The notes: generated by a model not told the origin, from the sequence alone. Shown: positions 14,272 to 43,564, numbered from the stretch's first letter. The stretch: DNA of 64,000 bases from a bacterium (GCA_963662285.2 CAXXMV010000001.1:640001-704000), one strand, 5' to 3'. A program made the numbers and translations.

Positions 14272-14443
14272 TGCTTGAAGCTCCGAGAGAGAAAATCTTT
14301 CGATACAAGACTCAAGAGCAAATAGTCGGCATTACCCAGAACCGGGATAAGTTAGTAAAAGTACGCACCACTTTGAAGACGAAGATAAATAATATTTTTG
14401 TCAACTCATGGTGGTGCGTATACTTATTATAGGAGATTAACAA

Positions 14444-16122: not shown

Positions 16123-16123
16123 T

Positions 16124-20604: not shown

Positions 20605-21770
20605 GACTTGGCATCCTCTCGTTCATTTAGCAGTTTTGTTACACGCACCGTACCCGTTAATAAGTCTTGCATTAGGGCGGTTTTCTGACAAGTGAACTTA
20701 TTCAAGCTGCTTTTATAGTCCTCAATCAGTTGATCTATTGCTTCCAATACTTTTATGATTTCAATTTGTTCAGTTCTATTTGGTACTGAAAGTTGATTAG
20801 GATGTAAATCATTTCGGTTTAGAGACGGCGATCCAGATTTGGTTCCAAATCTTTGCAAATCTAAAAAAGTATATAAATAAAAAACATACTTTACACAGTT
20901 ATCATTAAAGTTAGTTACAAACAAACTTGTATCATGTGCCCAAAAGTCACCTTCAACATAGTGAACTAAACCAATTGTTCCTTTTCTTCCGACGGTTACA
21001 CCGGGGCCACTTGTTGTCCATTTGTTATGAAACCCAATAATTCCTGATGATGATATTACAGGATAGGTTCCTTCAATTATATTCTCTTCAATAATATCAA
21101 ATCCACGTTGTAGAGGGGCGAAATTACGAAGATTAACAATTTCCCACTCCACCGGAATCCTCCCCAGCGGAGTGTCCTTAAACTCATGATTTTCTTCAGA
21201 GCGGATATTGCCGTGTTCGTCGATGCCTTTGGTCAGCAGGTCCTGCATCAGGCCGGTCTTAATGCGCTGCTGCTTGGCGATCAACGCCTCGGTCTGCTCA
21301 ATCGCCCGATCTACCATCGAGAGAATTTCAGAGATTTGGGTTTGCTCTGCTTTGTCAAATTCAAGGATTTCCAACTTTCCGAGAATTTCTTTATCTACAT
21401 GCGGGATACCAGAACCAGATGTATGTCCTTTGAGATAAGGCTCCCATTTTTTCAGAGCATAAAAGAAATATTCTGTATCAAATTCATCTCCGTGAGATAC
21501 GTAAGTCATTGTTGAAGCTAATAAACCTTTACGTCCTCGGAAAATCTCACCAGCGTTTGAACCATCCCACAAAAGCACAGTATCTCTATCATCAATCCAA
21601 ACAGCTTTTGCGCTTGGCTTTGCGAGTTCGGCTGGTGCTTTACATCTTAGATATTCAGGGGACAAATAATAGGTTGCACCTTCACCGAAATATGGTATTT
21701 GGGCAGGTGGTTTACCTTTATTTAGAACGACCACTTCTGAAAGTAATTTATGCTTAATTTTTATAATCAT
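20601..21770 (-). CDS. hsdS: Type I R-M specificity subunit S (probable ATG 21770)
   Basis: Two TRDs separated by [28 protein letters not shown]; C-terminal ALMQDLLTG; ATGA overlap with the hsdM stop. Confidence 0.93.
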
Positions 21771-24424: not shown

Positions 24425-25504
24425 AAATACTTAAATTCCCATCGTTTTTCTATTAACCAAAATCTTATCATGTTCCATAAAATTGACTTTAGGAATCATC
24501 TGCGATAGTAGTTAGCGAGTCAATTACCCCAGTTCGAAAACAAAAAAAACGTGAACCTGTCAGATAAAGGACGCTGCTTTTTAGAAGACTTAGTAGAAAA
24601 AGCCGCTTTTCTTACATCAAGCAGTGCTCATGGTAATCCCACAAAGACAGTCTGTCTCAAATAGTCACCCGCCATATTATTCGCCCCACCGCAACTTTCA
24701 CTGCATATAATCCACTTATCCACCCTAACCTCTCCAGGAGTAGACGTAGGCATGGGTCCAGATGAAACGTATTTATCTTACTGGACACAATTCTTCTTGA
24801 CTCATGATTTTCAAATTATCGATTAGAATACTCGATTTGACGCCGGGACCGCCCAATTGTACTACGCCAATGGGTGCAAATATTATAAGTAACTGGTTTT
24901 TGCTTGCCGATATGATTTATTACACCAGAACAAACTACAGGCGTCAACTGAACTGAACAACATATACTTACAACTAATAAATACATATATAATAAATAAT
25001 ATGCCAAATAAGTACCAAATATATTCATTATTTGCAAAAATTTTGGGTGGAATCGATAGAAAAATGAATTATGCACTACGCTTTTGATCCATAATACTGA
25101 ATAATACAACTGTATGTATTGACTTAATTGAATGACCTTGATGCGTAAGTATTAGATTGTTTGAGTCTCGGCGTTTTTACGTATCATTGAATAGTTATTT
25201 GTTTATTGTTGAAAACCTTGTAAAGTAACTCTTGTTATTTGCTGTTTTTATTCTCTATTGCATTCGACATGAACCGTTTTTGCGCAAAATCTTGTTTTTT
25301 AATGGATGTTTCTAGTGATATCACGGAAACCAATGGTGTTACGCTTATAGGGGCAGGTGTTCGGTTAAGTTTTCCTGTAATACTTATTGATTGTTGATGA
25401 ACATCAGAAGAAACGATGGTTGCGCTTTTAGTCTACCGATTAAACTCGGTTGCTTTTTGTTTGATCAAATCTTAAAAATCTCAAAATGCAGAGGAGAATT
25501 TATT

Positions 25505-27853
25505 ATGAACATGGTGAAATCTTTACGCTTCAATGCAACGCGAAAATTTGTATTTTACGGGATGATGGCATTTTGCTTTATGTTTTCCCAGAGTGGCGCT
25601 ACCCAGGAGACGATAGTTATCGATATTCCAAACTTACCGGCAGGCGCTAAACCCCTGGAAATGATACGAGTACCAGCAGGGACTTTTCTCATGGGTGCAC
25701 CAGCCGAAAAAGTTGAGAGTTTTGATGATGAAAAAGATGAATCTCCACAGCACAAAGTTTCAATCACTAATCCGTTTTATATTGGAAAATACGAAATAAC
25801 GCAGGCGCAATGGAAAGCAGTGATGGGCGATAATCCTGCGAAGGATTTCGGTGAAGGAAATGATTACCCAGTTTATTTTGTGTCATGGAATGACTGCCAT
25901 AGTTTTATAGAAAAACTTAATTCACTTGGACAAGGGCGATTTCGCTTACCAACTGAAGCGGAATGGGAGTATGCCTGTCGAGCGGGTATAACAACAGTAT
26001 TCTTTTGGGGAGACGACCCAATTTCTATTAAACTAATAGATGAATATGCGTGGACTTTTGGGGAAAATGAAGCAAAAAAATGTCATGTTGTTGGATTAAA
26101 AAAAACAAATCTCTGGGGATTATCTGATGTCAAAGGTAATGTTTGGGAATGGTGTTATGATTATTATGGCAAATATGTCTCAGCCGATCAAATTGATCCA
26201 AAAGGGCCTTCATCAGGAACTCACCTAGTAGTTCGTTGAAATGGTTCTATTAGATTAGTTCCAGACCATTGTTCTTTAACAAATCGAGGCATGGGTTCAC
26301 AAAATGAACGACATAAAGAGATTGGTTTTCGCATTGTACGAGAATATACAAGTCTACTACCGACGCCAATAATAACTCCAACGCCAACAGTTACTCCATT
26401 CCCAACCCCCACCCAGACGCCAACACCTGTTTCAGCGGGGACAGAACCTTTTGAATTGCCATTGAATGTGGATATCGGCCCATCAACGTTCAACCTTAAT
26501 TTGGGTACAAACGAATCAGCAACCGTCATATATGATCCAGGGATTGATGTATTAAGCCCTCCAGCCGATCCATCGGGTAGAGAAGCATATTTTATTCTTG
26601 TTTCCGGTGAAAAGTTGTGGACGGATTTACGTAATCTTGATACAGAGAATAGAAAATGGACTTTAATCATCACGGTTCCGCCCAATCAGCAAGCCACGAT
26701 TGTATGGAATCCAGAATTAATTCCCGATGACGGATATTTTGTTCCCGTTGATGCAATGGGGCGTCCTTCTGGGAAATCTATCGATATGAAGACGGAAATT
26801 TCTATCGACATTGAGGCGCAAGGCGGATTTGTTGCACGGAAGTTCTATTACCAAATTAATTTTGAAACAATTCTACCGGTAACCTTAGATTACGATTTGG
26901 TACGCGGCTGGAATTTAATTTCTGTACCGTTGCTCGTCGAGGAAAACGTAGTTCCAAGTAGCGTATTTGGAGCAATCACGCCAATATGGTCTTATAATCC
27001 GGAAATCTCGCAATACGAAATCCCAACATCCTTCGAGATGCAAAAAGGTTATTGGGTTTATGTTGAGCATGATCAACTTTTCCAAATAACAGGCCGCCAA
27101 GATAACAACCTTCCTATTACATTGATTCCAACCTGGAATTTGATTGGCGTTAATCAATCCGTTCTTCGCAGCACAGAAGGAATCGGTGTCGTATGGGGAT
27201 ATGATAACGTCAAAAAGAGATATATTCCTGTCGCGCCAACAGAATATTTAGAACCGCAAAAAGCGTATTGGTTCCAAGTCGGCGAACCAATTGAGTTGTT
27301 CTCGGATACTCCGCCAGCGAAAGTATCACATCGCGTAAACAAGGTAAATACGTTGAACGTTGAGACTCCATCAATTCTCTATTTGATTAATCCATCGATT
27401 GGTTCGGCACCTTTAGCGACATTAGAACTGGGAAGAGACGCCTCCGCTATCAATGAACTCGGTCCAGAAGATCTTCTTGCGCCCCCACCAGTTCCTGATT
27501 CAGACGGGAATGCATTTTTCTTGCTTAACACAGGGGTAGATTACGTAAAAGTAATGCGTGATGTACGTAGTATGCAAGGCAACCTCACTTGGCTTCTAGA
27601 AATCGATCAGAATCCAGGGATACCCGCCTCGCTAACCTGGGATGCAGCGGTCTTTGATGAACTAGCCCAAGCAGAGATTATTGAAATCGATCCAAATACG
27701 CTGCAACCAATAGCAGGATCCTCTTCAATAAAAATGGCGATTACCAATTCTTTACAGTTGGCTGCACCACAAGGCTTCGGTGGTACAAGTCGTTTCTTCC
27801 AAATTACATTATCAGAAAATACCGCCGTTTATGATTGGTTTATCATGAATTAA
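25505..27853 (+). pseudogene. Secreted FGE-sulfatase/CLec-domain surface protein interrupted by an in-frame TGA at 26237-26239
   Basis: ORFs 25391-26239 and 26291-27853 share a frame; RLPTEAEWEYACRAG, GNVWEWC, then VVR*NGS...GFRIVR; PT-rich linker; GWNLIS repeats; GAGGAG RBS before ATG 25505. Confidence 0.75.
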
Positions 27854-28874: not shown

Positions 28875-29222
28875 ATGCTGAATCATTGCGTATTAACCGG
28901 TAATTTAGGCGGTGATCCAGAAATAAGATATACAGCCAATGGAGATCCCGTCGCAACTTTGAACCTGGCGTTTAGATTTGGTAAAGATCAAACCGGATGG
29001 ATCAAAGTAACATGCTTCAAAAAACTGGCTGAACTCTGCGAAAAGTATCTTCACAAAGGCGCGCGGATTGGAATTGACGGGTATCTGACCCATGAATCGT
29101 GGGAAACGCAGAACAACGAAAAACGAACTGCGATCAAGATCATTGCCAACTCCCTGGAATTCATCAAAACCGACGGGCGTGGATTCAAAGAAGGTGAAGA
29201 CGCCAGTGATCTCCCGTTTTAG
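28875..29222 (+). CDS. ssb: Single-stranded DNA-binding protein
   Basis: LTGNLGGDPEIRYT, YLHKG, acidic DLPF C-terminus. Confidence 0.95.
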   Translation: MLNHCVLTGNLGGDPEIRYTANGDPVATLNLAFRFGKDQTGWIKVTCFKKLAELCEKYLHKGARIGIDGYLTHESWETQNNEKRTAIKIIANSLEFIKTDGRGFKEGEDASDLPF

Positions 29223-29253
29223 CAACATCATTCATCAGAAAGGAACATAATCA

Positions 29254-29970
29254 ATGAACCAAGAAGAACTCGAACAACAAAATCCATCCAAACCCAAATT
29301 GGATGATCGCTTCATCATGAATATCAAAGACAAGGAATTTGTTCAATACGCGGGACTGTTAGATTTGGCGCATCAACACGGTCTGATTAAACTGGAAGTC
29401 GAACATCTGCAATTCCCAAGTAAAGAGAATAACAATGTAGCCATCTGCCGGGCAATTGCGACGACAAAAACAGGTGCAGTGTTTTCTGATATCGCCGATG
29501 CTGATCCCCATAATGTCAATAAAATGATTGCGCCGCACATATTACGCATGGCCAGCACTCGCGCCAAAGCCAGAGCCCTACGGGATATGTGCAACATCGG
29601 CATCACCTGTATGGAAGAATTGGGATCATTGGATGAAGTAGTCGGAGAAAACCAGTATTCGAACAATAACAAAAAATCATCATCACCAACTCGCAATAAC
29701 AACAGCAAACAGCCGCCAAGCAATTCAGCATCGCCTGAGAAAAACACAGAACAATCAACTGCTTCAACTCCAAAATCAACCCATGATTCACAACTTGCGC
29801 CGAAACTCTCTGAAGCCCAGCACCGCGCCATTCGCAATCTCAGTAACCGCCGCGGCATCAAAGAAGATGAATTGAATAGTTTGGCTGTTAAGACCTATGG
29901 CGCGTCGGTCGATCAACTCACATTAAGCGACGCATCATCGTTCATCCGTACCTTACAACAAACCGCATGA
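29254..29970 (+). CDS. Putative single-strand annealing protein (Rad52/Sak-like)
   Basis: GLLDLAH, ADADP, RMASTRAKARALRD motifs; low-complexity linker; located between ssb and a nuclease. Confidence 0.6.
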   Translation: MNQEELEQQNPSKPKLDDRFIMNIKDKEFVQYAGLLDLAHQHGLIKLEVEHLQFPSKENNNVAICRAIATTKTGAVFSDIADADPHNVNKMIAPHILRMASTRAKARALRDMCNIGITCMEELGSLDEVVGENQYSNNNKKSSSPTRNNNSKQPPSNSASPEKNTEQSTASTPKSTHDSQLAPKLSEAQHRAIRNLSNRRGIKEDELNSLAVKTYGASVDQLTLSDASSFIRTLQQTA

Positions 29971-30079
29971 TTTAACCCAGGCATCAACCGAACAAACAAG
30001 AAAAAACAAAGGGGACAGGGAACATGGGTTGAAATATCTCTGTCCCTAATTCATTCACTTTCAAAACAAGGAGGTCTGT

Positions 30080-30886
30080 ATGGATATACAAACGCTTCGC
30101 CAACAACCGCATCTGTCCGCGTCGTCGATACAAAGTTACATTGAATGTGGTCTGCAATACAAATTTGGTAAGATCGACAAGATTAAATCCGAATACACAT
30201 CTGATGCCATGCTGTTTGGATCATGCATTCACAAGGCATTAGAAAAGTTGCATATCGCCAAAAAGGATAATCGCGAACTCCCATTGGAGAGGTTACTCGA
30301 ACTGTGGGAATCCGAATGGCAAAAGGAATTAAAAAAGCATCCAGACATCCGGTACAAAGAAGGAGAGAGTGTCGATACTCTTCTGCATCAAGGCCGGAAA
30401 CTGTTGACAACCTATTTCAAACAGCGCCCACAGGATTCATTCAAAGTGATCTCTACAGAAAAACCATTCGCTTTTAATCTGGAAGGTGTTCCAATACCTA
30501 TTATCGGCGTTACTGATCTGATCGAAGAAGATTCCGCAGGTAATATTATCATCACCGATTTCAAAACCGCCAGCAAAGCCTATTCCTCTGACGATATCGA
30601 CAAGAGTTTTCAACTGACTGTGTATTACATGGAGGTACGGCAAAATGGATTGGCGAACCGGGAGATACTGCTGAAATTCGATTGTCTGGTCAAAACAAAA
30701 ACACCCAAGTTCCAACAGTATTACACCGTGCGCACGCCTGAAGATGAGAACCGGGCCGTCCGCAAGATTCAAAAAGTCTGGCAAGGCATTGAGAAAGGCG
30801 TGTTTATCCCCAACGATACATCGTGGAAATGCGGATATTGCATGTACAAAGATCATTGTGACAAATGGTTTCAAAAACGACAGTGA
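30080..30886 (+). CDS. PD-(D/E)XK (RecB/AddB-like) nuclease with putative Fe-S cysteines
   Basis: HLSASSI..C, FGSCIH, E..F, G..DLI, DFKT, QL..Y, C-terminal CGYC..C. Confidence 0.88.
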   Translation: MDIQTLRQQPHLSASSIQSYIECGLQYKFGKIDKIKSEYTSDAMLFGSCIHKALEKLHIAKKDNRELPLERLLELWESEWQKELKKHPDIRYKEGESVDTLLHQGRKLLTTYFKQRPQDSFKVISTEKPFAFNLEGVPIPIIGVTDLIEEDSAGNIIITDFKTASKAYSSDDIDKSFQLTVYYMEVRQNGLANREILLKFDCLVKTKTPKFQQYYTVRTPEDENRAVRKIQKVWQGIEKGVFIPNDTSWKCGYCMYKDHCDKWFQKRQ

Positions 30887-30967
30887 AAACGAATTGATTT
30901 CAGGCTCTCAATCAACAACGACCATGATTGGATTTTAGGACAAATCAAAAAGAAGGAGATTCTTATC

Positions 30968-31207
30968 ATGAAGTCAAACATTATCGTCAGTGTAGGCGGC
31001 GGCGTTGTACAAGGCATTTGGGTATCGAAAGACATTCTTGATACGGTTCAGGTGATTGTGAAAGATTATGATTGTCAGCAGGACGAAGATCAACCAAATA
31101 TGATGAAAGATGAAAACGGGGATATCTGTGAGATGCAAAGATGGGATCAGGATAATTTCATCATCTTAACTGATGTCCAGGAAGGATTATTGAAAAACGT
31201 GATATAG
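30968..31207 (+). CDS. Hypothetical protein
   Basis: 79-aa ORF with AAGGAG RBS in operon; VGGGVVQ...DYD motif. Confidence 0.6.
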   Translation: MKSNIIVSVGGGVVQGIWVSKDILDTVQVIVKDYDCQQDEDQPNMMKDENGDICEMQRWDQDNFIILTDVQEGLLKNVI

Positions 31208-31234
31208 ATCAATTCAAAAGAAGGGAGGATAACA

Positions 31235-33118
31235 TTGTCTATGCTTGAATTGAACGATCAACAAAAGCAAGCGGCTGAGTTCTATCAAGGAACAGCGATG
31301 GTAATTGCAGTGCCGGGCAGTGGTAAAACGCTAACCATGACTCATCGTATTGGCAACTTGGTTGAAAAATACAACGTGCCTCCCGAACAGATATTGGGGA
31401 TGACGTTTACCCGTAACGCAGCTCATGCCATGCGGGAACGTCTCAAGCCGCTGTTGGATAAAAAGGCCAAGCGCGTTCTATTGACCACCATCCATAGTTT
31501 CTGCTTTTACGTGTTGAAGCGGGAAGGCTATGCATTCGAATTACTCACCGGCCACGATCAAGCATCGTTACTCAAAAACATCATTAACGATCTTAAACTG
31601 AAGAATCTGACCGTGGGTATGGTACTGCGAGAGATCAGCCTTTCCAAAAACAACCTGATACTATTGGATGAGTTTCAGAATTTACATGACGGCGATTCAA
31701 CCATGCTTCAGGTTGCCCAGGTTTATGATCAGTACGAACAACGCAAATCGAAGAAGATGTTGTATGATTTCGATGATTTACTGCTCAACGTCCAGGCGAT
31801 TCTGAATGAGAAGCATGATGTTAGAGACAAGTACAGAGAAATTTACCGCCATATCCTGGTGGATGAATTTCAAGATACCAATCCGGCGCAAATGGAAGTG
31901 TTAAAACTGTTGCTGGCAGACTCGACCGAAGAATCCAGTTGTTGGGTATGCGGTGATGATTGGCAAAGTATTTACGCATTCAATGGAGCCAGCGTCAGCA
32001 ATATCCTCAACTTCAGAGATATATACCCGCAGACGGAAACATTTGTCTTGGATATCAACTATCGCTCAACGCCCCAGATCATTGAAGCCTGTCAAACTCT
32101 GATTCAGTTCAACACCCGCAAGATCGATAAACAGGTGCAAGCCCATAATACTGATGGTGATGCGGTTATTACTTTGGATTGTTCCAGTGAAGAAGATGAA
32201 GCCTTACAGATCGTCAATGAGATAAGAGACTTGGTTGGTCGAAAGGGATACCATTATTCTGATATGGCGGTTTTGTATCGCGCCAACTATCTCAGCCGTA
32301 CCATAGAAGAGATATTCTCACAATACAAGATTCCATACGCCATTGAAAACGGGATGAATTTCTATCAACGCCGCGAAGTTAAATGGTTGTTGGATTACAT
32401 GAGAGTGATTAGCGCTCCAGATTCATGTGAAGGAGACGAAGCGTTACGCAGTATCATCAACATACCCAATCGTTACATCGGCAAGAAATTCGTGCAGGAA
32501 TTGGAGCAATATGCATCTGAACAAGGCATCCATTTGTATGAAGCGTTGAAGACCATAACGATAGACGCCCCATATCTACGTCGTAATGTCAGGGAATTGG
32601 TTCGCTTGCTTGATCCGTTAGTGGCAGAATCAGAATTCATTGAGCCAGCAGAACTGATTCACATTCTGCGTGAGGTACTCGATTATGACCGCTTTGTCGC
32701 TGATGACGAGATTCCCAGCCCGGATGACGCCAAGATCGATAACCTCAATCAGTTGAAATTATCCGCCGCCAAGTTCGATGATGTAAAGAGTTTTCTGCAA
32801 TATACCGAGACTTTTCAGGATAAAACGGTTGGTTCTGATCAAGAGGGTGTTCAGTTAATGAGCATCCACAAAAGTAAAGGCATGGAATTTTCCGTCGTAT
32901 TCGTCATTGGCTTAATTCAGGGAATCCTACCATCCCACAGAGAAGGCGATATCGAAGAAGAACGTCGCATCTGCTTTGTAGGCATATCCCGCGCCATGCA
33001 ACTATTGTATCTCAGCACCTGCCAGGTTCATCTTGGTCAACCCGCCGTCAAGTCCGTATTTATGGATGAGATCGTTGGGAATCAAGAAAACTGCCATACC
33101 TCTTCACAGCAAGATTAG
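31235..33118 (+). CDS. UvrD/PcrA-family ATP-dependent helicase
   Basis: AVPGSGKT, TFTRNAA, VDEFQDTN, GDDWQSIY, NYRS, HKSKGMEF, EEERR. Confidence 0.95.
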   Translation: MSMLELNDQQKQAAEFYQGTAMVIAVPGSGKTLTMTHRIGNLVEKYNVPPEQILGMTFTRNAAHAMRERLKPLLDKKAKRVLLTTIHSFCFYVLKREGYAFELLTGHDQASLLKNIINDLKLKNLTVGMVLREISLSKNNLILLDEFQNLHDGDSTMLQVAQVYDQYEQRKSKKMLYDFDDLLLNVQAILNEKHDVRDKYREIYRHILVDEFQDTNPAQMEVLKLLLADSTEESSCWVCGDDWQSIYAFNGASVSNILNFRDIYPQTETFVLDINYRSTPQIIEACQTLIQFNTRKIDKQVQAHNTDGDAVITLDCSSEEDEALQIVNEIRDLVGRKGYHYSDMAVLYRANYLSRTIEEIFSQYKIPYAIENGMNFYQRREVKWLLDYMRVISAPDSCEGDEALRSIINIPNRYIGKKFVQELEQYASEQGIHLYEALKTITIDAPYLRRNVRELVRLLDPLVAESEFIEPAELIHILREVLDYDRFVADDEIPSPDDAKIDNLNQLKLSAAKFDDVKSFLQYTETFQDKTVGSDQEGVQLMSIHKSKGMEFSVVFVIGLIQGILPSHREGDIEEERRICFVGISRAMQLLYLSTCQVHLGQPAVKSVFMDEIVGNQENCHTSSQQD

Positions 33119-33172: not shown

Positions 33173-34102
33173 ATGTCTCAAGTAACCACATTAGGAGAAT
33201 TACGTGCGCAAGTCGAAAAGAAATCCCTGAACCATTGGGATGATTATATTCCAGTGAAGGATATTCAGTTCGTTGGATTACAGAAAAACATTATCCAAGG
33301 TGACGAGCATCTAATGAGACCAGCGGCGCAACGGGCGATCTGTAACCGGTTGGGAATACCAATTCAGTATTTACAGAAATGCGAGCCGTTATTGCAAGCA
33401 GTTAACCTGAACGAATGGCTACCCAAAGAACGCAATGATAATCTGTTTGTGAGATTCGACGGCAATGATATCAGGGCTATATTCACACCGCGTTACAAGC
33501 CAATCGATAACCTGCAAGTGTTGGATCGCTTATACGAACAGGGATACAACGATGATAATAAGATTCAATGCTCATTAGATGATGAGTTCTTTATGCTCAA
33601 TATCCCCGACAAAGAAAAATCCTTTCAAGTCCGGCATGGCGACCGAATGGAACCGGGGATCAGTATCGGAAACAGCGAAGTCGGTATGTCATCACTAACC
33701 ATTGCAGCATTTGTGCTCCGGCTTATATGCACCAACGGTTTGATCTCCACAACTAGCGTTGAATCTTCATACCGGCATGTATCACATCGTATTCTGAGCG
33801 AGTTCCCGCAGGTGCTCAATCAGGTAAGCATGGATCTCAACCGGCAGCGTAACCAATGGGAAATTTCCGCCGATAGCCACGTCGATAATCCAGAAGGCAC
33901 GCTTCGCTCATTCAATAGACAATACAATCTGGATAAGCAAGAAACCGAAGCAGTTGATTGGGCATGGAGTCAAGAATCAGGCGAAACCATGTTTGATATC
34001 GTGAACACATACACCAAAGCCGCGCAGCATCCCCAGTTACCAGCCGAAAGCGAATATCAGTTACAAAAAGTAGGAGGCAATATTCTGGCGATGATAAACT
34101 GA
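33173..34102 (+). CDS. DUF932-like protein
   Basis: NSEVG.SSL...RLICTNG motif. Confidence 0.75.
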   Translation: MSQVTTLGELRAQVEKKSLNHWDDYIPVKDIQFVGLQKNIIQGDEHLMRPAAQRAICNRLGIPIQYLQKCEPLLQAVNLNEWLPKERNDNLFVRFDGNDIRAIFTPRYKPIDNLQVLDRLYEQGYNDDNKIQCSLDDEFFMLNIPDKEKSFQVRHGDRMEPGISIGNSEVGMSSLTIAAFVLRLICTNGLISTTSVESSYRHVSHRILSEFPQVLNQVSMDLNRQRNQWEISADSHVDNPEGTLRSFNRQYNLDKQETEAVDWAWSQESGETMFDIVNTYTKAAQHPQLPAESEYQLQKVGGNILAMIN

Positions 34103-34198
34103 GAGCATTTCAAGTCTCCCAGGAAACATGAAATATCAGCCCCAAAAGAACCAGAATTCAAAAAACCGAAATTTAACAAACTAGAAACGAGGTGATAC

Positions 34199-34534
34199 AT
34201 GTCGAAAACCACTGCCCTGATTGATGAGATACGAGATGATTTGCAAAGGTTACAAGCGCTGTCCAATGAAATGAAAGTCAAATACCGTGAACTGGCCGCC
34301 ACACTATTAAGCGCCCGCGCATTGGTTCCAGAAAATCGCTGGGAAGCATGGGTATCAGCCAACCTGGAATTGGATGTATCAGTCGTCGAATCGGTGATGG
34401 AATGCGATATACCAGCGCTAGGCATCAACTCGCTGATGCTGCCATTAACTTTCGATGAAGTACAGCAAGCGTCAGAAAGTTCCAAGCCTAATGGAAGCCG
34501 GATTCACAACAGAAAATCTAAGAAAAAAGTTTGA
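34199..34534 (+). CDS. Hypothetical protein
   Basis: GAGGTG RBS; last gene of the operon before a terminator. Confidence 0.55.
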   Translation: MSKTTALIDEIRDDLQRLQALSNEMKVKYRELAATLLSARALVPENRWEAWVSANLELDVSVVESVMECDIPALGINSLMLPLTFDEVQQASESSKPNGSRIHNRKSKKKV

Positions 34535-34564
34535 TGCGTTGAAATGAATATTGATTTGCGATTG

Positions 34565-34590
34565 ACTCCATGAATTGTGGAGTTTTTTTT
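34565..34590 (+). terminator. Rho-independent terminator
   Basis: ACTCCA/TGGAGT stem plus T tract. Confidence 0.65.
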
Positions 34591-34619
34591 GTTGCATGAT
34601 GATACCTATGAATATGAAA

Positions 34620-34940
34620 TCAATCTGAACTATTTATAATCGCGTCGGGGATTGTGTATGGGAGTAGTACGGTATCTGCGGCGAAACTGAGTGGTAGATC
34701 AATTAATAGAAGCGGCAAAACTATGGGTGATGGTTTGTTTTCCTTATCGCTGGCGATCTCGCCCATTGTGCTTGCGTCGAAGCGTACTCCTGCATAGATT
34801 TTGTTATCAGGGGGATTCGGGAGTGGCGTGAAGCCTTCACCTACCGTCATCCCCATTAACGTGCCGATGCAGCCGGTTTGCATGAAAAGTACAAATGCCA
34901 TCAATGAGGCTGATAAAAAATGTTTGATTGATTTATACAT
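34620..34940 (-). CDS. YceK/YidQ-family lipoprotein
   Basis: Lipobox QTGC, YAGVRFD, LIDLPLSFAADTVLLPY. Confidence 0.85.
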   Translation of the reverse strand: MYKSIKHFLSASLMAFVLFMQTGCIGTLMGMTVGEGFTPLPNPPDNKIYAGVRFDASTMGEIASDKENKPSPIVLPLLLIDLPLSFAADTVLLPYTIPDAIINSSD

Positions 34941-35100
34941 ATCAAGATTCTCCTAGATCAAAATATTTTATATAAATATCAATTCAAATTAGGATTGACA
35001 AATCTTTCATAATACAACGTCATCCAAAAAAAGAACGAGCGCCGCGCTTTCGCGTATTCGAGCAGATATTTCATGCTTTAACCGCTGGTTGATGTATTTT

Positions 35101-35198
35101 TGTCTGAATCAGGATTTGCTGGATTAAAGGATGTACTTGATAAAAGCCCAAACCAACATCCTGAGTATCCTTCTATCATGGGTATCCAGATTCAGACA
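35101..35198. repeat. REP-like inverted-repeat element
   Basis: TGTCTGAATC...GATTCAGACA terminal IR; related half-copies at ~59231 and 61436-61477. Confidence 0.55.
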
Positions 35199-35356
35199 GG
35201 CTTGGTAATCGCCCTGGCAGAACCTTCTGCTTTCGCTTACCAGCCCCGCCAAGGCAGTTTTTTGTTTGCACGGATTCTCACCGTGTCGGGGATGGAACTG
35301 GACTCCTTGTATACTCCTGAACGATTCGCACCGTCCAGATCTGATATTTGGGAGTA

Positions 35357-35470
35357 CTGCACAAACGAAAACCCCTGTTGTTTTTCCTGTTGTTGGGGTT
35401 GTTCCTGTTACGATTTGCAGAACGGCAGTTCCTGGTGTTGTTGTTCCAGCTGCCGCCCCGAAGAACCCTG
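35357..35470 (-). ncRNA. DGR template repeat (TR)
   Basis: 114 bp, ungapped match to the VR at 36995-37108; AAC-rich, reading [37 protein letters not shown] in the VR frame. Confidence 0.96.
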
Positions 35471-36541
35471 AGCGTCCATCCCTTCTACTCGTTGGAAAAC
35501 CAACGGGCCTATTACTTTTTCCCGCAACCGCCAACTATCTGCATGAGATACATGAGCAATCCAACTCATAATTCGTTGTTTTGCATCGTTTAAGTTTACT
35601 TCTTCATTGCTATACGCTTTTTGCAATTCTCTGAATCTGCTTCTGGCTTTCTGTACATTGCCAGAGACAACGCGAACATAATTTTGAAATACCCTGTATC
35701 CCAAGAATGTTATACCTTTGGAAACTGAGAAAATTTGGCTCTTGATTGGATGGATAATCAATCGGTTATGCTCTAGAAATCTTTCAATTTGAATACGCCA
35801 TTCTTGTAATTGTTCTTTGGAATCAGATAAAAGTACGAAATCATCCACATATCGTAAATAAGTCTCACATTTCAATGTTTCAATTACAAAATGGTCAAAT
35901 GGATTCAAGAAAATATTGGCGAAATGCTGGCTGGTCAAATTACCGATGGGAATGCCGCGACGGCGTTCGATATGAGTAAAAAGGTCGTCACTTGGGAAAT
36001 ACTCCACGATTTCTTCTTGAGGATTACTGGCGTCAATGATGGTATCCAGGAGCCAAAGTGTATTGGGACACTTGATCTTTTTTCGCAATAATCCTTTGAG
36101 AATTGCATGATCTATGCTGGGAAAATATTTTCGGATATCTGCTTTGAAAACATAGTTATATCTTTTGGCATAATACTTTAGGGCTTGTATGGCCCGATGC
36201 GTTCCATACCCGTTTCGGTTAGCGAAGGTTTTGTTCGTGTATGTGTTTTCAAATATGGGCATCACTATTTGGCAAACCGCGTGATGGATCACTCTATCCC
36301 GGTAAGGCGCGGCGGAAATGTAACGTCTTTTGGTATCGAATACTTCAAAGCAGGTATAATCCCCAGGCCAATACGAATGATTTAGAAGTTCTTGCTGAAG
36401 TTTCATAAGATTCTTTTCCAAATCGTAGTTAAAGCGAAGCACTTGGTCATGATACCGCTTACCCCGTTGAGCGTTTTTTGCGGCGCGAACCAGGTTATCC
36501 CAGGTTACGATTTGAGAGAACAAGTTACTATGTCTTTTCAT
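35408..36541 (-). CDS. DGR reverse transcriptase
   Basis: [29 protein letters not shown] (DGR-type), [12 protein letters not shown]. Confidence 0.97.
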
Positions 36542-36885
36542 GCTGACCTTCCCTGTTGCCGCAGCCAGCCGCCCAGCATGGAGCCGATTTCATTCATATT
36601 GACGCTGGCGAATTCGTATTGGCGGTTGCTGAAAATATTGAAATCTTTGAGAAGGCGGGTTTGAAATCGAATGACCTCCAAATCCACGTTCAGTTTTCGT
36701 AATATTTCGTTCCGTGCGCGACTATACCTTGCCTGGATAAGGCCTTCCAATAGACCATAAAGCAACGATGTCATCCTATTTCCCAAACCAAAGCGGTGAT
36801 CCCGCGGCATGCGGTTTAGATGGGGTATATACCATAGAATCAAATCGTAAGTTTTTTGTATGATGGGCAGTTCTTTTTCGCTCAT
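36538..36885 (-). CDS. avd: DGR accessory protein Avd (four-helix bundle)
   Basis: YDLILW, PRDHRFGLG, EIGSMLGGW; ATGA overlap with the RT gene. Confidence 0.92.
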   Translation of the reverse strand: MSEKELPIIQKTYDLILWYIPHLNRMPRDHRFGLGNRMTSLLYGLLEGLIQARYSRARNEILRKLNVDLEVIRFQTRLLKDFNIFSNRQYEFASVNMNEIGSMLGGWLRQQGRSA

Positions 36886-36913
36886 TCTTATATACTCCCA
36901 AAAAAAATCGCGT

Positions 36914-36926
36914 CGGGCTTCGCCCG
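36914..36926 (-). promoter_or_regulatory. GC-rich hairpin downstream of the VR (candidate DGR homing hairpin and/or terminator)
   Basis: Minus strand CGGGC-GAA-GCCCG followed shortly by a T tract, ~60 bp after the target stop codon. Confidence 0.6.
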
Positions 36927-36984
36927 CATTTTAAAATGGAAAAAATTTAAATGGCAAATGGTAAAATAGTAATATACCAAATGG

Positions 36985-39525
36985 CTACTGAGTCCTGCAC
37001 AAACGAAAACCCCCGCCGTCCCTCCCGCTGCCGGGGACGCTCCCGCAACGATTCGCAGAACGGCAGACCCAGGTGACGTAGTACCAGCTGCCGCCCCGAA
37101 GAACCCTGTACGAGCCAGAACTTGCACCTTCAGGATCATTGTTTGGAGAATTGGCATAATAATTGCTATCATACCAATCATTACACCACTCCCACACATT
37201 GCCGCTCATATCAAACAGACCAAATTCATTTGGTAATTTCGTTCCGACTTCATGGGTCTTTGATCCCGAATTGCTAGTATACCAGGCATAATCGCCAATA
37301 TTTCCATTTTCCCAATAATAATCTGTCGTTGTTCCTGCCCGGCAAGCGTATTCCCATTCAGCTTCTGTTGGCAAGCGAAAAGTCCCATATCCCATCTCAT
37401 TCAGTTTTTGAATAAAGGTCTGGCAATCATTCCAGGAAACTTGTTCTACTGGATGGTTGTCTCCACTGAAACGTGATGGATTGCTCCCCATCACCGCCTG
37501 CCACTGCGCTTGGGTCACCTCATACATCCCCATATAGAAATCTTTAGAGATTGTAACCTCATGAATCGGTTTTTCATCTGAATCACCAGAATTACTACCC
37601 ATATCGAAAGTACCCGCCGGGATTTTAACCATAACCAGTTCCTTCGCCCCGGCGGGGAGAGTTAGGGAAATGGTTTCAGTTTCTTTGTTTTCTGCTGATT
37701 TCAGAACTTCCTGCACCGCATAATAGGCGGATTTGGCATTGTAATTGTCATCGAATAGCAATGGAGTTCCCCAGCCGGGATAGGTTTCGGGAATCCAGGT
37801 ATACTTGTCTGTGAATCCCCACATGATTAATCCCGTACAATTATCCGCTAATAGACAAGCATCTAATATGCTGGCATAGATATTCGCTTGCTCGTCTAGC
37901 ATTGCTTGCGTTGCGGGCTGCTTCAGGCTGACATCCAGTTCTGTAATCTGGCATTCCACACCAATCTCTGCAAAACGATTCATATAAGCGATTAAATCAA
38001 CGGATGATGGCACTGGGGCAGGAGCATGGATTCCAGTGGATGGATCAGACGCATTGACGCCTAGATGCATTTGCAGCCCGACGCCGTCAATGGGAACGCC
38101 ATTTTCTTTGAGCGCTTTCACCAGATCATAGATTCGTTCCGATTTATCCCCCAAACCTTCCGGATCGTAATCGTTGTAGAACAGTTTAATGTCAGCACCG
38201 ATGTTTGATGCGGCTACGTAAGCATACTCAAAGGCCAACTCGACATATTCAGCACCAATCTTATCTGCCCAGAACGAATTTACACTGTTATCGTCTACTT
38301 TAGAACTTAGCCTAATAACAGGATTATCCACGTAATCTAACGCCAAATCTCCTTGATCGGGCACAGCCTCGTTTACCACATCCCAAATGATAACGCGTCC
38401 GGGAAAGTTATCAGCGAAGTGTGTGACGACCGTCTCAATATAACCATGGAGAAGAGCAATTGCATCGACCTTATCTAATTCAACCTGATGTTTCTCAAGC
38501 CACGATGGAAGATTGTTGTATTTCGGGTTGTGCCAAACCAGGGCATGGCCCCGCACATGCATGTCATTGGCGGCGGCGAACTCGACGATTGAGTCTGCAT
38601 CTCCCCAGTTGTAGTCTGAGGCAGTGATGTTTTCCCAGTTAATGTTTGGGTTATACAACAGCGCGTCCATCTTCATCTCATTTTCAGGGGTGATGATGTT
38701 AAACTCACGCGCCAGCGTAGCCTTGTAGTTCTGGTCGTTCCATGGGGTGTTTTGGATAGTTCCGTTACTGTTCCAGGTATTCATACGGATTGAAGAGCCT
38801 ATTTTGAAGTTGGCTTTGTCAGCGTAGGTGCGCAATCTTTCACCATCAGGCTCTATAACTAAAATTGAAGAATTATTCTCATCGGGAACTATACTAATTG
38901 TATTTGGATCATCCCCATCGCCATCCAAAAACGCGCCGTCGTAATATCTACCTGATTCGAGGAGATAGACGTCAAAGTTATCGATGTAAAAAGTTACCGT
39001 TCTACCGCTGTTTTCAGGATTGTGAAGCTGGATGAACGGATCGAATCCCAATCCCGGTGGAACAAACAAAACAGAAACCTGTCTCCATTTGTTGTGAAAT
39101 TCAGATAAACCCGCCGGGCTGTTGGTGGGCACATCGATAGAACCGCTTTTCCCAATCGCCCCTATCGTGATAGAGCCTTCAGTGCCGTCCATTCTTACAT
39201 TGCAGCGAATCAGGGCAGCGTTGATTGCGTTAAACGATTTATTAAAAATCATAACGCCTTCGCCCGGATCGGCGGTGACGCGAACCCCAATCCCATCCGT
39301 AGCGCTCTCGAATGAGTTGTTCGTGGGTATTGTCACGCCAAACTGAACATCGGCTAAAGGTAAAGCGCCAAAACCAGCGCCTTGTATTGTTATGCCATTG
39401 GCTGCTGCGGATTTACCAGCAAAATCAATACGTATAGGATCATCCTGGGCATAGATAGTCTGACATAATATAATACTAATAAATACATATAACACATTCA
39501 CGAATAAATTCTTCATAATAATCAC
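36985..39525 (-). CDS. DGR target: secreted protein with GH10 xylanase-like domain and C-terminal FGE-type CLec domain containing the VR
   Basis: Signal peptide; GH10 motifs TPENEMK, GHALVWH, WDVVNEA, YNDY, GLQMH, ITELDV; FGE motifs [30 protein letters not shown]...GFRL. Confidence 0.93.
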   Translation of the reverse strand: MIIMKNLFVNVLYVFISIILCQTIYAQDDPIRIDFAGKSAAANGITIQGAGFGALPLADVQFGVTIPTNNSFESATDGIGVRVTADPGEGVMIFNKSFNAINAALIRCNVRMDGTEGSITIGAIGKSGSIDVPTNSPAGLSEFHNKWRQVSVLFVPPGLGFDPFIQLHNPENSGRTVTFYIDNFDVYLLESGRYYDGAFLDGDGDDPNTISIVPDENNSSILVIEPDGERLRTYADKANFKIGSSIRMNTWNSNGTIQNTPWNDQNYKATLAREFNIITPENEMKMDALLYNPNINWENITASDYNWGDADSIVEFAAANDMHVRGHALVWHNPKYNNLPSWLEKHQVELDKVDAIALLHGYIETVVTHFADNFPGRVIIWDVVNEAVPDQGDLALDYVDNPVIRLSSKVDDNSVNSFWADKIGAEYVELAFEYAYVAASNIGADIKLFYNDYDPEGLGDKSERIYDLVKALKENGVPIDGVGLQMHLGVNASDPSTGIHAPAPVPSSVDLIAYMNRFAEIGVECQITELDVSLKQPATQAMLDEQANIYASILDACLLADNCTGLIMWGFTDKYTWIPETYPGWGTPLLFDDNYNAKSAYYAVQEVLKSAENKETETISLTLPAGAKELVMVKIPAGTFDMGSNSGDSDEKPIHEVTISKDFYMGMYEVTQAQWQAVMGSNPSRFSGDNHPVEQVSWNDCQTFIQKLNEMGYGTFRLPTEAEWEYACRAGTTTDYYWENGNIGDYAWYTSNSGSKTHEVGTKLPNEFGLFDMSGNVWEWCNDWYDSNYYANSPNNDPEGASSGSYRVLRGGSWYYVTWVCRSANRCGSVPGSGRDGGGFRLCRTQ
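36995..37108 (-). repeat. DGR variable repeat (VR)
   Basis: 24 mismatches to the TR, all at TR adenines on the coding strand. Confidence 0.96.
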
Positions 39526-39643
39526 CTTTTTGAGATAATTTATAAACGCCTAACAAATTAGATCGTATTTGAACTGTATAATCAAGTGTGCTCCTTATTT
39601 TTGCGCTTGAGTGGATAATAATTCGATTTATCCAAAATCAATT

Positions 39644-39967
39644 TCACAGCAACCCTTTTACCCACATAATACAATTTTCAACGATTCCAAAGGTGGCAAG
39701 GATGATTGGTTTGACTTGTTCATTCCGCATTGCATATTCAAGCGCCCACAATGTTAGAATCGAATAAATGATTGTTAGAATCTTTATGATCAGTATTTCT
39801 TCCACTATGCGGCGGCATTTGGCGCGGAAGGGCAGTTCACGGAAGGTTGCTTTTCGGCGGCGGGGCCGAGGGATGAATACAATTTCCCCATACTGGTTAA
39901 CCTCATAGTCTCCCCGGCGATCATTGGTCGGCATGGTTCCAAGAGGACTTTGATACAATCGAGCCAT
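39644..39967 (-). CDS. Hypothetical membrane protein, last gene of the E2-JAB-E1 operon
   Basis: AAGGAG RBS, basic N-terminal half, hydrophobic C-terminal segments. Confidence 0.6.
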   Translation of the reverse strand: MARLYQSPLGTMPTNDRRGDYEVNQYGEIVFIPRPRRRKATFRELPFRAKCRRIVEEILIIKILTIIYSILTLWALEYAMRNEQVKPIILATFGIVENCIMWVKGLL

Positions 39968-39985
39968 CTCTCCATCTCCTTTGGA

Positions 39986-41191
39986 TTAAAAGACTGTTTC
40001 GTGAGGCTTTAATGAATCCCATATACATTCTGGATCATCATCGGGTATTTCATCACATAGCATGGCAGGTTCCGAGTATTCAGGATTTCGCTTATTCTGG
40101 CAGATATCACAATTTGATCGCGGCCCGACAAAGCGCGTAGGGAAAATATCAAACGGTTTCTGAAAAGGATCATGGCCTTTGCAAAACGCTCCGCCAACAA
40201 ACCAAAAACAGCGGTCAGGATTTACAATCTGTGCATAGGCATCGTTGTGATTGCGCAAAAGAACGCCCAAGGCTATCTGGGCTTCCAGACTGGACACAAA
40301 GTTGACGGCTGCGTGCAAACCCGGCTGACCTTCATAATCGTCCCGGCCAGTTGCAGTACTATAATCAATGGGACCGCGTTTCTGTTGGACGACTACGCCT
40401 CCACCTTTTAAGCAACATAGGCAGGGCGTTTCCCATTCGGGAACATAAGCGAAGACCTCGCCGCCGATAGCATTTTCATAACAACCACCAAACACGGCGG
40501 GTGTTCGATGGTTTACCGCCCATTCATTGACCATAAGTTGAACAGCCAATATATCGGTGGATGCGATAACCAGACTGGATTGGGTAAACAAATCGTACAT
40601 AAACGTATCTGAATCGTCTTGAAAGATATCCCGTGGATAGCATTGAACCTGAGCATTGGGGTGAATATCCATAATCCGGTCTTTCACAACGGAGACTTTG
40701 TTGCGTCCAAGATCGCTGAATCCCCCTTCATGCCGCGAGAGGTTGGAGGCTTCCATCGTATCAGGATCAATCAAGATAAAATTCCCAACTCCAGCACGTG
40801 CCAATTCCAGGGCCAGGTAACTACCGCCAGTTCCACAACCGAAGATGGTTACAGTGGAATGTTGTAGAGTCTTCAGGCACGCAGGATCGAAGGGAGTCCG
40901 CGCAAACACATCATGATCTTCAATTACCTCAACCTGTGTGAGTGAAAGATGATTCTGACTCCAAATGAAAACCTTGGGCTGCGATGAGTGTGCGAAGACA
41001 AATAACCAGGGAGACTGGGGAGGCGTTGGAATTGCCTCTCCCCGGTGCAAGACCTGTCCAATTACAGATCGGTCGTGCGTCATTTCAGGAGCGCAGATAT
41101 GAGCCGTGTTTTCCTCTTCACGGATAACGCCATGAATCTTCATACCCGGTTTTAACTGCGACAGTGCGTGAGACGAAATAAACACTCTCAT
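39986..41191 (-). CDS. ThiF/E1-like adenylating enzyme
   Basis: GCGTGGS, LARAGVG, DPD...SNLSRH, GRNKV, STD, Zn motifs CLCC and CDIC. Confidence 0.92.
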   Translation of the reverse strand: MRVFISSHALSQLKPGMKIHGVIREEENTAHICAPEMTHDRSVIGQVLHRGEAIPTPPQSPWLFVFAHSSQPKVFIWSQNHLSLTQVEVIEDHDVFARTPFDPACLKTLQHSTVTIFGCGTGGSYLALELARAGVGNFILIDPDTMEASNLSRHEGGFSDLGRNKVSVVKDRIMDIHPNAQVQCYPRDIFQDDSDTFMYDLFTQSSLVIASTDILAVQLMVNEWAVNHRTPAVFGGCYENAIGGEVFAYVPEWETPCLCCLKGGGVVVQQKRGPIDYSTATGRDDYEGQPGLHAAVNFVSSLEAQIALGVLLRNHNDAYAQIVNPDRCFWFVGGAFCKGHDPFQKPFDIFPTRFVGPRSNCDICQNKRNPEYSEPAMLCDEIPDDDPECIWDSLKPHETVF

Positions 41192-41197
41192 GATAAT

Positions 41198-42094
41198 TCA
41201 CCCATATTGGACGAGCGCTGATAGGGATTTTCTCATCCGACTATACTGCTGAATCGCTTTAGCTATCGATTCTCCCACTTGACGCTGCATTGGAATAAAA
41301 CGGTTACGCCACGCTCCATAACTTAATTCGATTAACAATTCTTTCGGCTTACTTTTATCAGATAAAACGTAAGCATAATGCTCTGCGCCCCGCTTTGCAT
41401 ACAACGCTGCATATTTGGCTTTGCCCGAATAAAAGACTGTTGTTTCAAAGCCATGAGCATTCATCTCTGATGTTTCGTCATCAATGAAATGTTGGAATGT
41501 AGAATGTATATCTTCTGGTATGGCAAATACATTTGATACAGAACAGGGTGTGGATGATTCGATTTTAAGTGATTGCGCAATATCTTTATGGGTGTCTTCG
41601 ACCCAGTGCAATTGCAAAGGATCGAAACCAGTCAGGTCTTTGCGCAATTCATAGGCGCAAATCCGCCATCCCTGTTTCCCCTTTTTATGATTCATTGTTA
41701 CTATGAATGACAAGAGGGGGCCAATTGAAAGATCCCAGCCGTCTTTTTGCACCATACGCACGGCTTGACGTAGATCGCCCTTGCTGGGCGTATGAAAGGA
41801 GCCTGGGTGTTTATGCCAGTATCCCAGTACATGAACCCTGTTCTGATGATGCCATTTGATGATATTGAGCAGCAGTTGATCGAATTCTGCATCGTTTGAA
41901 CAATGGATAATATCAAGATCCGAATTCGGACCAGCAGGAAAGGCATAGAGCAGCGCTGGATCAGAGCAAGTTCCAACCAGCAAACCGACGGTCTCCTGGT
42001 TGAGGTTTTTGTTGCATTCCGATTCGATGACGGCGAGACAAGACCAGGATGCAGGCATCACTTTGGCGAACAAAGGAATCGAGAGAATATTCAA
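41198..42094 (-). CDS. JAB/MPN-domain metallopeptidase with C-terminal extension
   Basis: ETVGLLVG and GYWHKHPGSFHTPSKGD (E...HxH-x7-S-x2-D JAMM motif). Confidence 0.88.
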   Translation of the reverse strand: MNILSIPLFAKVMPASWSCLAVIESECNKNLNQETVGLLVGTCSDPALLYAFPAGPNSDLDIIHCSNDAEFDQLLLNIIKWHHQNRVHVLGYWHKHPGSFHTPSKGDLRQAVRMVQKDGWDLSIGPLLSFIVTMNHKKGKQGWRICAYELRKDLTGFDPLQLHWVEDTHKDIAQSLKIESSTPCSVSNVFAIPEDIHSTFQHFIDDETSEMNAHGFETTVFYSGKAKYAALYAKRGAEHYAYVLSDKSKPKELLIELSYGAWRNRFIPMQRQVGESIAKAIQQYSRMRKSLSALVQYG

Positions 42095-42097
42095 CGA

Positions 42098-42529
42098 TCA
42101 AGCCCTCCTTCGCAGCAGAGGGTTGGATGATTCCCGCTGATTTTCCCATTTGTTGCCATCTGGCCAATGTTTGGTTCGGCGATACTCCTCATACGACCGT
42201 ATCCATCCACAAGCCCAATCGAGAATCACTTTACCGGACGTTTGAGGCCCAACATCATCAACCCCCCACAAACACAAACGACCATCGCCAAACATGTGGG
42301 GAGCAGGATTGATGCGGGGCGATGTAATGACAACTTCGGGGTGATCGTAGGGAAAACGGTCGGGATAATACATCATTATATTGTACAGTTTCCCTTTCCA
42401 GCGGAATTTCAGATAGACCTCTATCCTCCCTTTGCGTTGAGATATGCGGGTATTGGGATAGACCTTGTTGATTAAATTGGTTTCAAGCCGTAAACGTTCA
42501 GGCAGACGTATATACCAAGGTTTCATCAC
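42098..42529 (-). CDS. Ubiquitin-conjugating E2-like protein
   Basis: RLRLE, YPDRFPYDHP, PHMFGDGRLCL (HxxxxGxxC catalytic motif). Confidence 0.85.
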   Translation of the reverse strand: MMKPWYIRLPERLRLETNLINKVYPNTRISQRKGRIEVYLKFRWKGKLYNIMMYYPDRFPYDHPEVVITSPRINPAPHMFGDGRLCLWGVDDVGPQTSGKVILDWACGWIRSYEEYRRTKHWPDGNKWENQRESSNPLLRRRA

Positions 42530-43517: not shown

Positions 43518-43564
43518 TGATTTGTAATCAGCCGGTCGGAGGTTCAAGTCCCCTCGCCAGCTTA
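43518..43564 (+). repeat. Right att core (duplicated tRNA-Thr 3' half)
   Basis: Identical to 2325-2371; lacks the tRNA 5' half. Confidence 0.95.

Follow-up and report, generated by a model that had tools for sequence, protein, structure and literature searches.

The stretch analysed here, called the window, is 64,000 nt of a bacterial genome (GCA_963662285.2, CAXXMV010000001.1:640001-704000), with positions counted from its first nucleotide. Its minus strand carries a diversity-generating retroelement (DGR) whose target gene encodes a predicted secreted protein, in which a glycoside hydrolase (GH) family 10 xylanase domain precedes a C-type lectin domain (CLec) of the formylglycine-generating enzyme (FGE) type. 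So far, DGR targets have been interpreted either as binding proteins (tail fibres, adhesins, pilins) or as conflict-system sensors; in the present case the diversified lectin is joined to an apparently working extracellular polysaccharide hydrolase. The cassette lies entirely on the minus strand in the order target, avd, reverse transcriptase (RT), template repeat (TR) and candidate structured RNA, with the variable repeat (VR) at the end of the target gene and open reading frames (ORFs) as follows:

36985-39525, minus strand: DGR target gene, 846 aa when read from the GTG at 39525, with signal peptide, N-domain, GH10 and a CLec containing the VR
38881-39447, minus strand: N-domain of the target (residues ~27-215), a beta-sandwich resembling a carbohydrate-binding module (CBM), no Pfam match
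37690-38850, minus strand: GH10 catalytic domain (residues 226-612), by PF00331 and alignment with 1xyz_A
36988-37632, minus strand: C-terminal FGE-type CLec domain, PF03781 at residues 632-843, E = 7e-52
36990-37108, minus strand: VR, the final 40 codons of the target, by repeat search and alignment
36990-37013, minus strand: invariant 3′ end of the VR, IMH-like (initiation of mutagenic homing), 24 nt, G/C-rich, one T>G relative to the TR copy
36538-36885, minus strand: accessory gene avd, encoding 115 aa and sharing 4 nt with the start of the RT
35408-36541, minus strand: DGR RT, 377 aa, with IGNLTSQ and YVDD motifs, RVT_1 E = 2.4e-24
35352-35470, minus strand: TR, covering the last 21 codons of the RT ORF, 37 adenines
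35211-35356, minus strand: structured RNA candidate, RT-14-like (Rfam RF02921), directly 3′ of the TR

A single long direct repeat was found within positions 34000-41000, pairing 35352-35470 with 36990-37108 over 119 nt, ungapped and with 79% identity. Read on the minus strand, the two copies differ at 25 positions, 24 of which are TR adenines (17 A>G and 7 A>T); 24 of the 37 TR adenines are changed and 13 kept. The 25th mismatch, a T>G, sits at the extreme 3′ end, beyond the 114-nt span (35357-35470 versus 36995-37108) in which 24 of 24 mismatches fall on adenines, with 36 adenines among the 114 positions (hypergeometric P = 4.5e-16). Repeat search and alignment bear out the pair of the original prediction, which had reported a 114-bp ungapped TR/VR match with 24 mismatches, all at TR adenines. 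Over this span the differences are restricted to TR adenines, as is diagnostic of a DGR. Changed sites in the VR occupy plus-strand coordinates 37014-37083 and hit codon positions 1, 2 and 3 in 13, 9 and 3 cases, respectively, the first two being preferred. The TR holds 11 AAC codons and one AAA codon that could turn into a stop, and the number of reachable protein variants computed from it is ~10^20.8. For the invariant 3′ end of the VR we adopt the label IMH/IMH*, presumably applicable here as in the Bordetella phage.

Avd reaches 126.4 bits with the NCBIfam equivalog NF033474 (DivGenRetAVD, cut-off 80) and also matches Pfam bAvd (E = 1.7e-22). The best solved match of the RT is 8ub7_A (E = 1.4e-49), a 328-aa RT carrying IGSLTSQ that we take to be the Bordetella phage bRT, while a group II intron RT reaches only 3e-17. 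The segment 35211-35356 aligns with the full Rfam RF02921 model (positions 1-144) with a score of 39.3 bits (E = 4.7e-4 in 401 nt), short of the 48.1 set for gathering; alignment with its equivalent at L058, the locus of the nearest RT described below, gives 27 pairs, 9 of them with compensatory changes, from two sequences only. That the motifs RT-1 to RT-19 adjoin RT genes is described in passages of Weinberg et al. (2017, PMC5737381). Counts of promoter-like sites (14 versus 11.6 ± 3.5 expected) and terminator-like sites (2 versus 4.5) are uninformative. The RT, avd and target ORFs are all intact. Given adenine-only mismatches, an Avd over its cut-off, the RT motifs, an RT-14-like RNA and a CLec resembling that of TvpA (see below), the DGR is genuine and complete, a textbook case by sequence criteria; the target-avd-RT-TR cassette announced from the raw sequence is confirmed by ORFs, Avd and RT profiles and the TR/VR pair.

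By sequence comparison the DGR has one target. A scan tolerating any change at adenines returned no second VR in the window. Across the 7.29-Mb genome nine stretches resemble the TR significantly (E of 6.2e-9 or better), namely the TR, the VR and seven others; the six of these seven that were compared each show at least 16 non-adenine mismatches and are not targets (C8:271692-271807, a weak match, was left out). No second DGR was found in the genome, the only other RT found being a group II intron RT/maturase (RVT_1 and GIIM; C8:1291797-1293059, equivalent to L036:3798-5060 on the minus strand).

The target probably starts at the ATG at 39516 rather than the GTG, giving 843 aa: an AGGTG precedes this ATG by 7 nt, and P0001, the copy in the database, has the same length of 843 aa. 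Its N-terminus resembles, as judged by eye, a Sec signal peptide (MKNLFVNVLYVFISIILCQTIYA/QDD; MKNLF...IYA/QDD). The N-domain that follows was modelled with AlphaFold (AF2) from 11 sequences as an all-beta sandwich with a mean pLDDT of 82.4, and Foldseek searches against the PDB returned MAM domains, CBM22 of Xyn10B and Xyn10C, CBM4 and CBM61 at E-values of 1e-6 to 1e-5, with TMq of 0.45-0.56 and 9-19% identity, MAM and toxin domains ranking equally high. The model therefore indicates a CBM-like fold, which is not proof of sugar binding.

The GH10 domain is covered almost end to end by PF00331 (residues 258-606, E = 7.3e-87, profile positions 18-310 of 311) and by Clostridium thermocellum XynZ (1xyz_A, E = 1.6e-66, chain residues 23-344 of 347). 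All hallmark motifs align with 1xyz (ENEMK, RGHxLxWH, WDVVNE, LQMH, ITELD and WGFTD), for which reason the enzyme appears intact. WDVVNEA (381-387) and ITELDV (527-532), both of which had been recognised in the initial reading as the catalytic Glu motifs, fall opposite WDVANE and FTEIDI of 1xyz, and the Pfam match and this alignment uphold their identification; we take Glu386 to be the acid/base and Glu529 the nucleophile. Judged by sequence, this is apparently a catalytic endo-xylanase. Among solved structures, the CLec best matches TvpA, the variable protein of the Treponema denticola DGR (2y3c, E = 1.5e-37), true FGEs following at 4e-26, and the VR aligns with the C-terminal RGGSW...GFRL scaffold of TvpA. 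The predicted placement of the VR inside a C-terminal FGE-type CLec agrees with this match and with the PF03781 span.

In the N-domain relatives the CLec is joined directly, and GH10 therefore looks like an insertion that entered the linker of N-domain-CLec proteins, an older family. In P0121 (489 aa) an N-domain and a CLec 61% and 49% identical to those of the target are separated by a short linker, without GH10; the window's own genome also encodes N-domain-CLec paralogs, of which two are 487 aa long and a third has 721 aa and a second CLec domain, besides a pseudogene copy. The whole N-domain family amounts to 8 proteins in a collection of 5.8 billion sequences, the seven besides the target comprising four with FGE-sulfatase, one with a C39-like peptidase and two without a Pfam domain, none of them with GH10. 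The nearest GH10 in the own genome is 29.5% identical to that of the target, and the nearest anywhere are 33-49% identical. GC content gave no signal of a foreign GH10, the domains standing at 0.44, 0.46 and 0.48. A plausible evolutionary route is that a DGR target already in place received a catalytic domain in its linker.

The nearest RT in the genome collection (L058, from a cyanobacterial metagenome-assembled genome) is 59% identical and lies in a cassette of the same order, target-avd-RT-TR, with a TR/VR pair of 126 nt and 87% identity; its target combines Peptidase_C14 with an FGE-sulfatase CLec. RT homologues (E ≤ 1e-20) occur in 10 of 35 genomes of the phylum, the window's own counted, and where their targets are visible these are TIR_2 with CLec beside a TIR-NACHT gene (G011), CLec alone (G015) and a CLec-HRDC-RT arrangement (G022). 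No relatives of the RT were found in the viral contig collection. CLec DGR targets bearing kinase or peptidase domains are also described in passages of PMC10907252 and PMC11661182; a catalytic or signalling domain ahead of a diversified CLec is an established pattern.

Several known systems share parts of this arrangement. The Treponema denticola DGR of TvpA is likewise a cellular, non-phage DGR with an FGE-type CLec and a VR at the extreme C-terminus. TvpA is a lipoprotein not known to carry a catalytic domain, whereas here GH10 and a CBM-like domain precede the CLec. With the Bordetella phage BPP-1 DGR (Mtd, Avd, bRT, TR, spacer RNA) the present element has in common an adenine-specific TR-to-VR transfer, an Avd, an RT of the [LIV]GxxxSQ type and, here as a candidate, a structured RNA by the TR; in BPP-1 an RT-10 motif lies between TR and RT according to passages of Weinberg et al. 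(2017, PMC5737381). It departs from BPP-1 in its order target-avd-RT-TR-RNA, in a TR that overlaps the RT 3′ end, and in a target predicted to be a cellular secreted-type enzyme, not a phage tail-fibre protein. A catalytic domain before a diversified CLec is shared with the kinase-, caspase/CHAT-, TIR- and STAND-CLec targets of cyanobacteria and other multicellular bacteria; those are read as intracellular conflict sensors or effectors, in contrast to the signal peptide and polysaccharide hydrolase found here. Modular GH10 xylanases such as the CBM22-GH10 Xyn10B of C. thermocellum (2w5f) also place a beta-sandwich module ahead of the GH10 barrel, but the extra C-terminal module here is a DGR-diversified CLec, not a fixed CBM. 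Fusions of GH and FGE-sulfatase domains, considered next, bring the same two kinds of domain together in a secreted-looking protein.

A junction probe (residues 500-740) was compared with 26 genomes of the order and 35 of the phylum, and the window's own was the one genome with a match running across the GH10-CLec junction; none of the other listed matches begins before probe position 66, and these genomes are rich in CLec genes. The pairing is present in 1 of the 35 phylum genomes. Among the best 120 GH10-side and the best 120 CLec-side matches only the target itself has both domains, and among the best 150 of 9754 GH10 cluster representatives a CLec was detected in two, the target and P0321; as a control, the CLec search recovered the domain in 120 of 120 known CLec proteins. 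A whole-protein search listed tandem-CLec proteins only and says little on GH10 fusions. P0321, which is 631 aa long and alone in its cluster, is encoded on a 53-kb contig. Its start resembles a signal peptide and is followed by FGE-sulfatase (47-266) and GH10 (305-615); it keeps WDVLNEG and ITEIDI, and contains a VR-like stretch that looks diversified. By its domain order, which is reversed, and without an N-domain, it is an independent fusion. In the ESM Atlas, clusters combining GH and FGE-sulfatase domains were found for GH71 (77 and 54 members), GH30 (55) and GH14/GH42 (59); all or nearly all members carry both domains, and this domain content stands, while similarities of 0.77-0.82 are leads only as regards kinship.

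In the 26 order genomes a search for a GH71-CLec fusion (PF03659) found none, only weak matches in ORFs of 303-460 aa. A metagenome scan for GH10 with CLec covered 80 loci, none with both domains and one (L124) with CLec-avd-RT. At the level of listed titles, abstract openings and passages, the DGR literature yielded no glycoside-hydrolase DGR target; supplements, such as Supplementary Data 5 of PMC8144416, may list some. The pairing had been called unusual at the outset, which stands for GH10, where it is rare, and falls for the idea of an enzyme-CLec target as such, given the Peptidase- and TIR-CLec proteins of related DGRs, the published kinase and peptidase cases, the GH71, GH30 and GH14/GH42 clusters with FGE, and P0321. 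On the proteins compared, the GH10-CLec pairing is rare and not unique: at least one independent parallel exists for GH10, and other GH families supply several more.

Public sequencing runs provide a view of the VR in other material: X2 and X3 derive from the same sample and carry the stretch, and X1, a seawater run of another study, carries small parts only (0.07 of sampled words, 25 of 34 records less than 90% alike) and was not used as habitat evidence. In X3, two alternative contigs cover 36984-37113 with shared flanks of 30 nt; they split at 37014 and rejoin at 37084, the first and last of the variable adenine sites. The window's sequence is reproduced by one branch (depth 5.7), whereas the other departs from it at 19 letters and by one gap (depth 3). 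A 151-nt contig of X1 that spans 36970-37120 shows 23 differences, the adenine sites 37014 and 37016 included, and two offsetting indels, while the neighbouring contig (37271-37421) has 3 differences only. Because the two X3 contigs span exactly the variable stretch, the element looks active on these shallow assembled sequences, and probably is.

By analogy with the family, the RNA made of the TR and the structured 3′ element would be copied by an Avd-RT complex with errors at adenines, and the resulting cDNA, with the invariant VR 3′ end as its guide, would take the place of the target's final 40 codons. Some 24 surface positions of the CLec would be rewritten in this way, and the domain would act as a hypervariable targeting module, attaching the xylanase to ligands that change (glycans, particles or cell surfaces) in the way a fixed CBM does. 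On balance we favour this reading, in which a variable lectin aims a working xylanase, as the one with the best support. A further step, in which the DGR is an adaptive carbohydrate-binding module that re-aims a working xylanase and the pairing was selected, not accidental, is put forward tentatively and is more doubtful than otherwise; it draws on GH-CLec fusions that appear to have arisen several times independently (GH10 in two orientations, GH30, GH71, GH14/GH42).

Several observations weigh against a lectin-aimed xylanase diversified by an active DGR. Sec export of the target is predicted from a signal peptide recognised by eye, and the RT-14-like match stays under the Rfam gathering score, three related RT loci, L058 included, giving no Rfam match to RT-14 at E ≤ 0.1. 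Downstream of the VR the sole hairpin is a terminator-like stem ~65 nt off, and the region folds like its shuffles (z = -0.92). The evidence for VR variation consists of assembled contigs of depth 2-6, not raw reads, with letters mostly undisplayed; the X3 variant with the 1-nt gap may be an error or a defective allele, and X2, from the same sample, contains one allele only. Finally, the closest related DGRs diversify cytoplasmic-looking peptidase-CLec and TIR-CLec proteins, and a targeting role is not the only precedent for such a CLec.

Should the lectin indeed steer the enzyme, the DGR would offer a natural means of evolving enzyme targeting on demand, and if the pairing was selected as well, DGR-guided enzyme targeting would be an unrecognised strategy of polysaccharide degraders. 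Steering by the lectin would have a bearing on the ways in which bacteria attached to particles deal with diverse cell walls of plants and algae, and would be of practical interest, industrial xylanases usually being aimed by fixed CBMs.

The main rival to the lectin-aimed xylanase, which we judge unlikely, is that the target is mainly a diversified adhesin in which GH10 serves as a second binding module or provides a minor local clearing activity. N-domain-CLec relatives work without GH10 and the N-domain itself has a CBM-like fold, in line with the account of cellular targets in passages of Roux et al. (2021, PMC8144416), where most such targets carry a signal peptide or transmembrane segment together with carbohydrate-binding or adhesion domains and are tied to a particle-associated lifestyle. 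The retention of every GH10 hallmark motif is, however, unexpected for a purely binding remnant, and the independent GH10/CLec fusion P0321 retains WDVLNEG and ITEIDI as well.

The cassette could also be a frozen relic, its VR diversified in the past and retrohoming since ended. We find this improbable: RT, avd and target ORFs are intact, the 114-nt span holds zero non-adenine mismatches against 16-53 in decayed copies of the same genome, and the split in X3 matches the variable interval exactly. The single allele in X2 and the shallowness of the variant contigs (depth 2-3) speak for a relic, and decay does occur in the lineage, as the closest in-family RT homologue (G003, 63% identity) has an in-frame TAG.

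Less credible still is a role of the CLec as invasion sensor of a conflict or defence system that would have GH10 as its effector and include the E2-JAB-E1 operon and other defence genes. Passages of Doré et al. (2024, PMC10907252) propose such a sensor role for related DGRs; among the nearest RT relatives the diversified proteins are Peptidase_C14-CLec (L058) and TIR-CLec beside TIR-NACHT (G011), and the island described below carries a type I restriction-modification (R-M) system, a Schlafen-like gene and, just upstream on the same strand, the E1/E2/JAB operon. Against it stand the N-terminal signal peptide and CBM-like domain of the target, a xylanase without an obvious cytoplasmic substrate, and the fact that no STAND, MoxR or vWA partner lies beside the target.

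Least plausible of all is that assembly created the GH10-CLec fusion as a chimera, through the conserved core that 29 CLec paralogs have in common, the outcome that the original prediction had named as refuting it: short-read contigs of both runs do stop within the CLec, at 37306-37324, a region in which collapsing paralogs raise the depth over ten-fold, but the junction (37633-37690) lies within single contigs of X2 (record 14, 37306-39700) and X3 (record 22, 37306-38181) at 0 differences, the break in the conserved core is bridged to the VR by overlapping contigs (X3 record 21, 37084-37324, and X1 record 5, 37271-37421), and the window sits on a 1.25-Mb contig of an 8-contig assembly.

The DGR is part of a genomic island of ~41.2 kb delimited by these features:

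2297-2369: tRNA-Thr
2325-2371, plus strand: attL, an exact repeat of 47 bp that covers the 3′ part of tRNA-Thr
2452-3702, minus strand: tyrosine integrase, adjoining attL
43518-43564, plus strand: attR, the second 47-bp copy

The integrase matches Pfam Phage_integrase at E = 1.9e-5 and 25.0 bits (the curated cut-off of 27.1 not being reached) and phrog_1 at E = 6.8e-19. By its tRNA, integrase and 47-bp repeat, this is a tRNA-integrated genomic island. No virion genes (capsid, portal, terminase, tail) were found among 22 island ORFs compared with PHROGs, nor with Pfam, ORFs below 110 aa being mostly left out; in the PHROGs comparison the matches were confined to replication and recombination families. 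A phage-like replication and recombination set is distributed over 3893-8604 (minus), 13168-14977 (plus) and 28875-33118 (plus) and comprises a family A DNA polymerase (PolA), an NrS-1-type primase-polymerase, SSB, a PD-(D/E)XK exonuclease and a UvrD-type helicase, together with two DUF669 proteins, one of which matches phage SSB families. The element may replicate by itself, or it may be a prophage that has decayed. Of the non-phage integrative element first proposed, the integrative part is well founded in tRNA-Thr, integrase and att repeats; the non-phage part is not plain, there being a phage-like replication module yet no virion family. DGRs on integrative conjugative elements are described for Bacteroides (10.1101/2024.11.15.621889).

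Directly upstream of the target and on the same strand lies the E2-JAB-E1 operon (39644-42529, minus), with an E2-like gene (42098-42529), JAB (41198-42094), E1/ThiF (39986-41191) and a 107-aa membrane-like ORF (39644-39967). The PADLOC models E1-E2, JAB and E2 match, and no cyclase accompanies them; the operon looks like a stand-alone ubiquitin-like conjugation system, of a kind tied to phage defence. A defence cluster at 15448-24424 (minus) contains the type I R-M genes (HsdR, HsdS, HsdM), an inserted Schlafen/AlbA_2-HATPase gene and a YgjP-like metallopeptidase. Also on the island, at 9559-11289 (minus), is a sigma-54 activator-type AAA+ protein whose best PADLOC matches are RtcR/PspF-like CARF-AAA-HTH models.

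A second CLec gene on the island (25391-27853, plus) runs for 820 codons in one frame, with an in-frame TGA at 26237-26239 where the RGGSW scaffold begins; past the TGA come a Pro/Thr linker and ~480 aa without a family, and the gene is either a pseudogene or a read-through gene. Considered as a target of the TR, it was rejected, 53 of its 86 mismatches being non-adenine. Elsewhere in the genome, the N-domain-CLec paralog at C1:279046-280467 (L011, L002) is broken by stop codons. Its VR-equivalent is Asn-rich, adenine-intact and template-like, with 21 non-adenine differences from the island TR, and may be a relic of another DGR or of the birth of a TR. CLec (FGE-sulfatase) domains are strongly expanded in the order, with 6-48 matches per genome (the window's genome and 25 others). 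In the window's genome they occur in 29 ORFs, up to three in tandem, with partners that include KAP NTPase, Lectin_C, WD40/He_PIG, HZS_alpha, TPR/HEAT, beta-helix and BNR_2, an expansion that contrasts with the one DGR RT encoded there.

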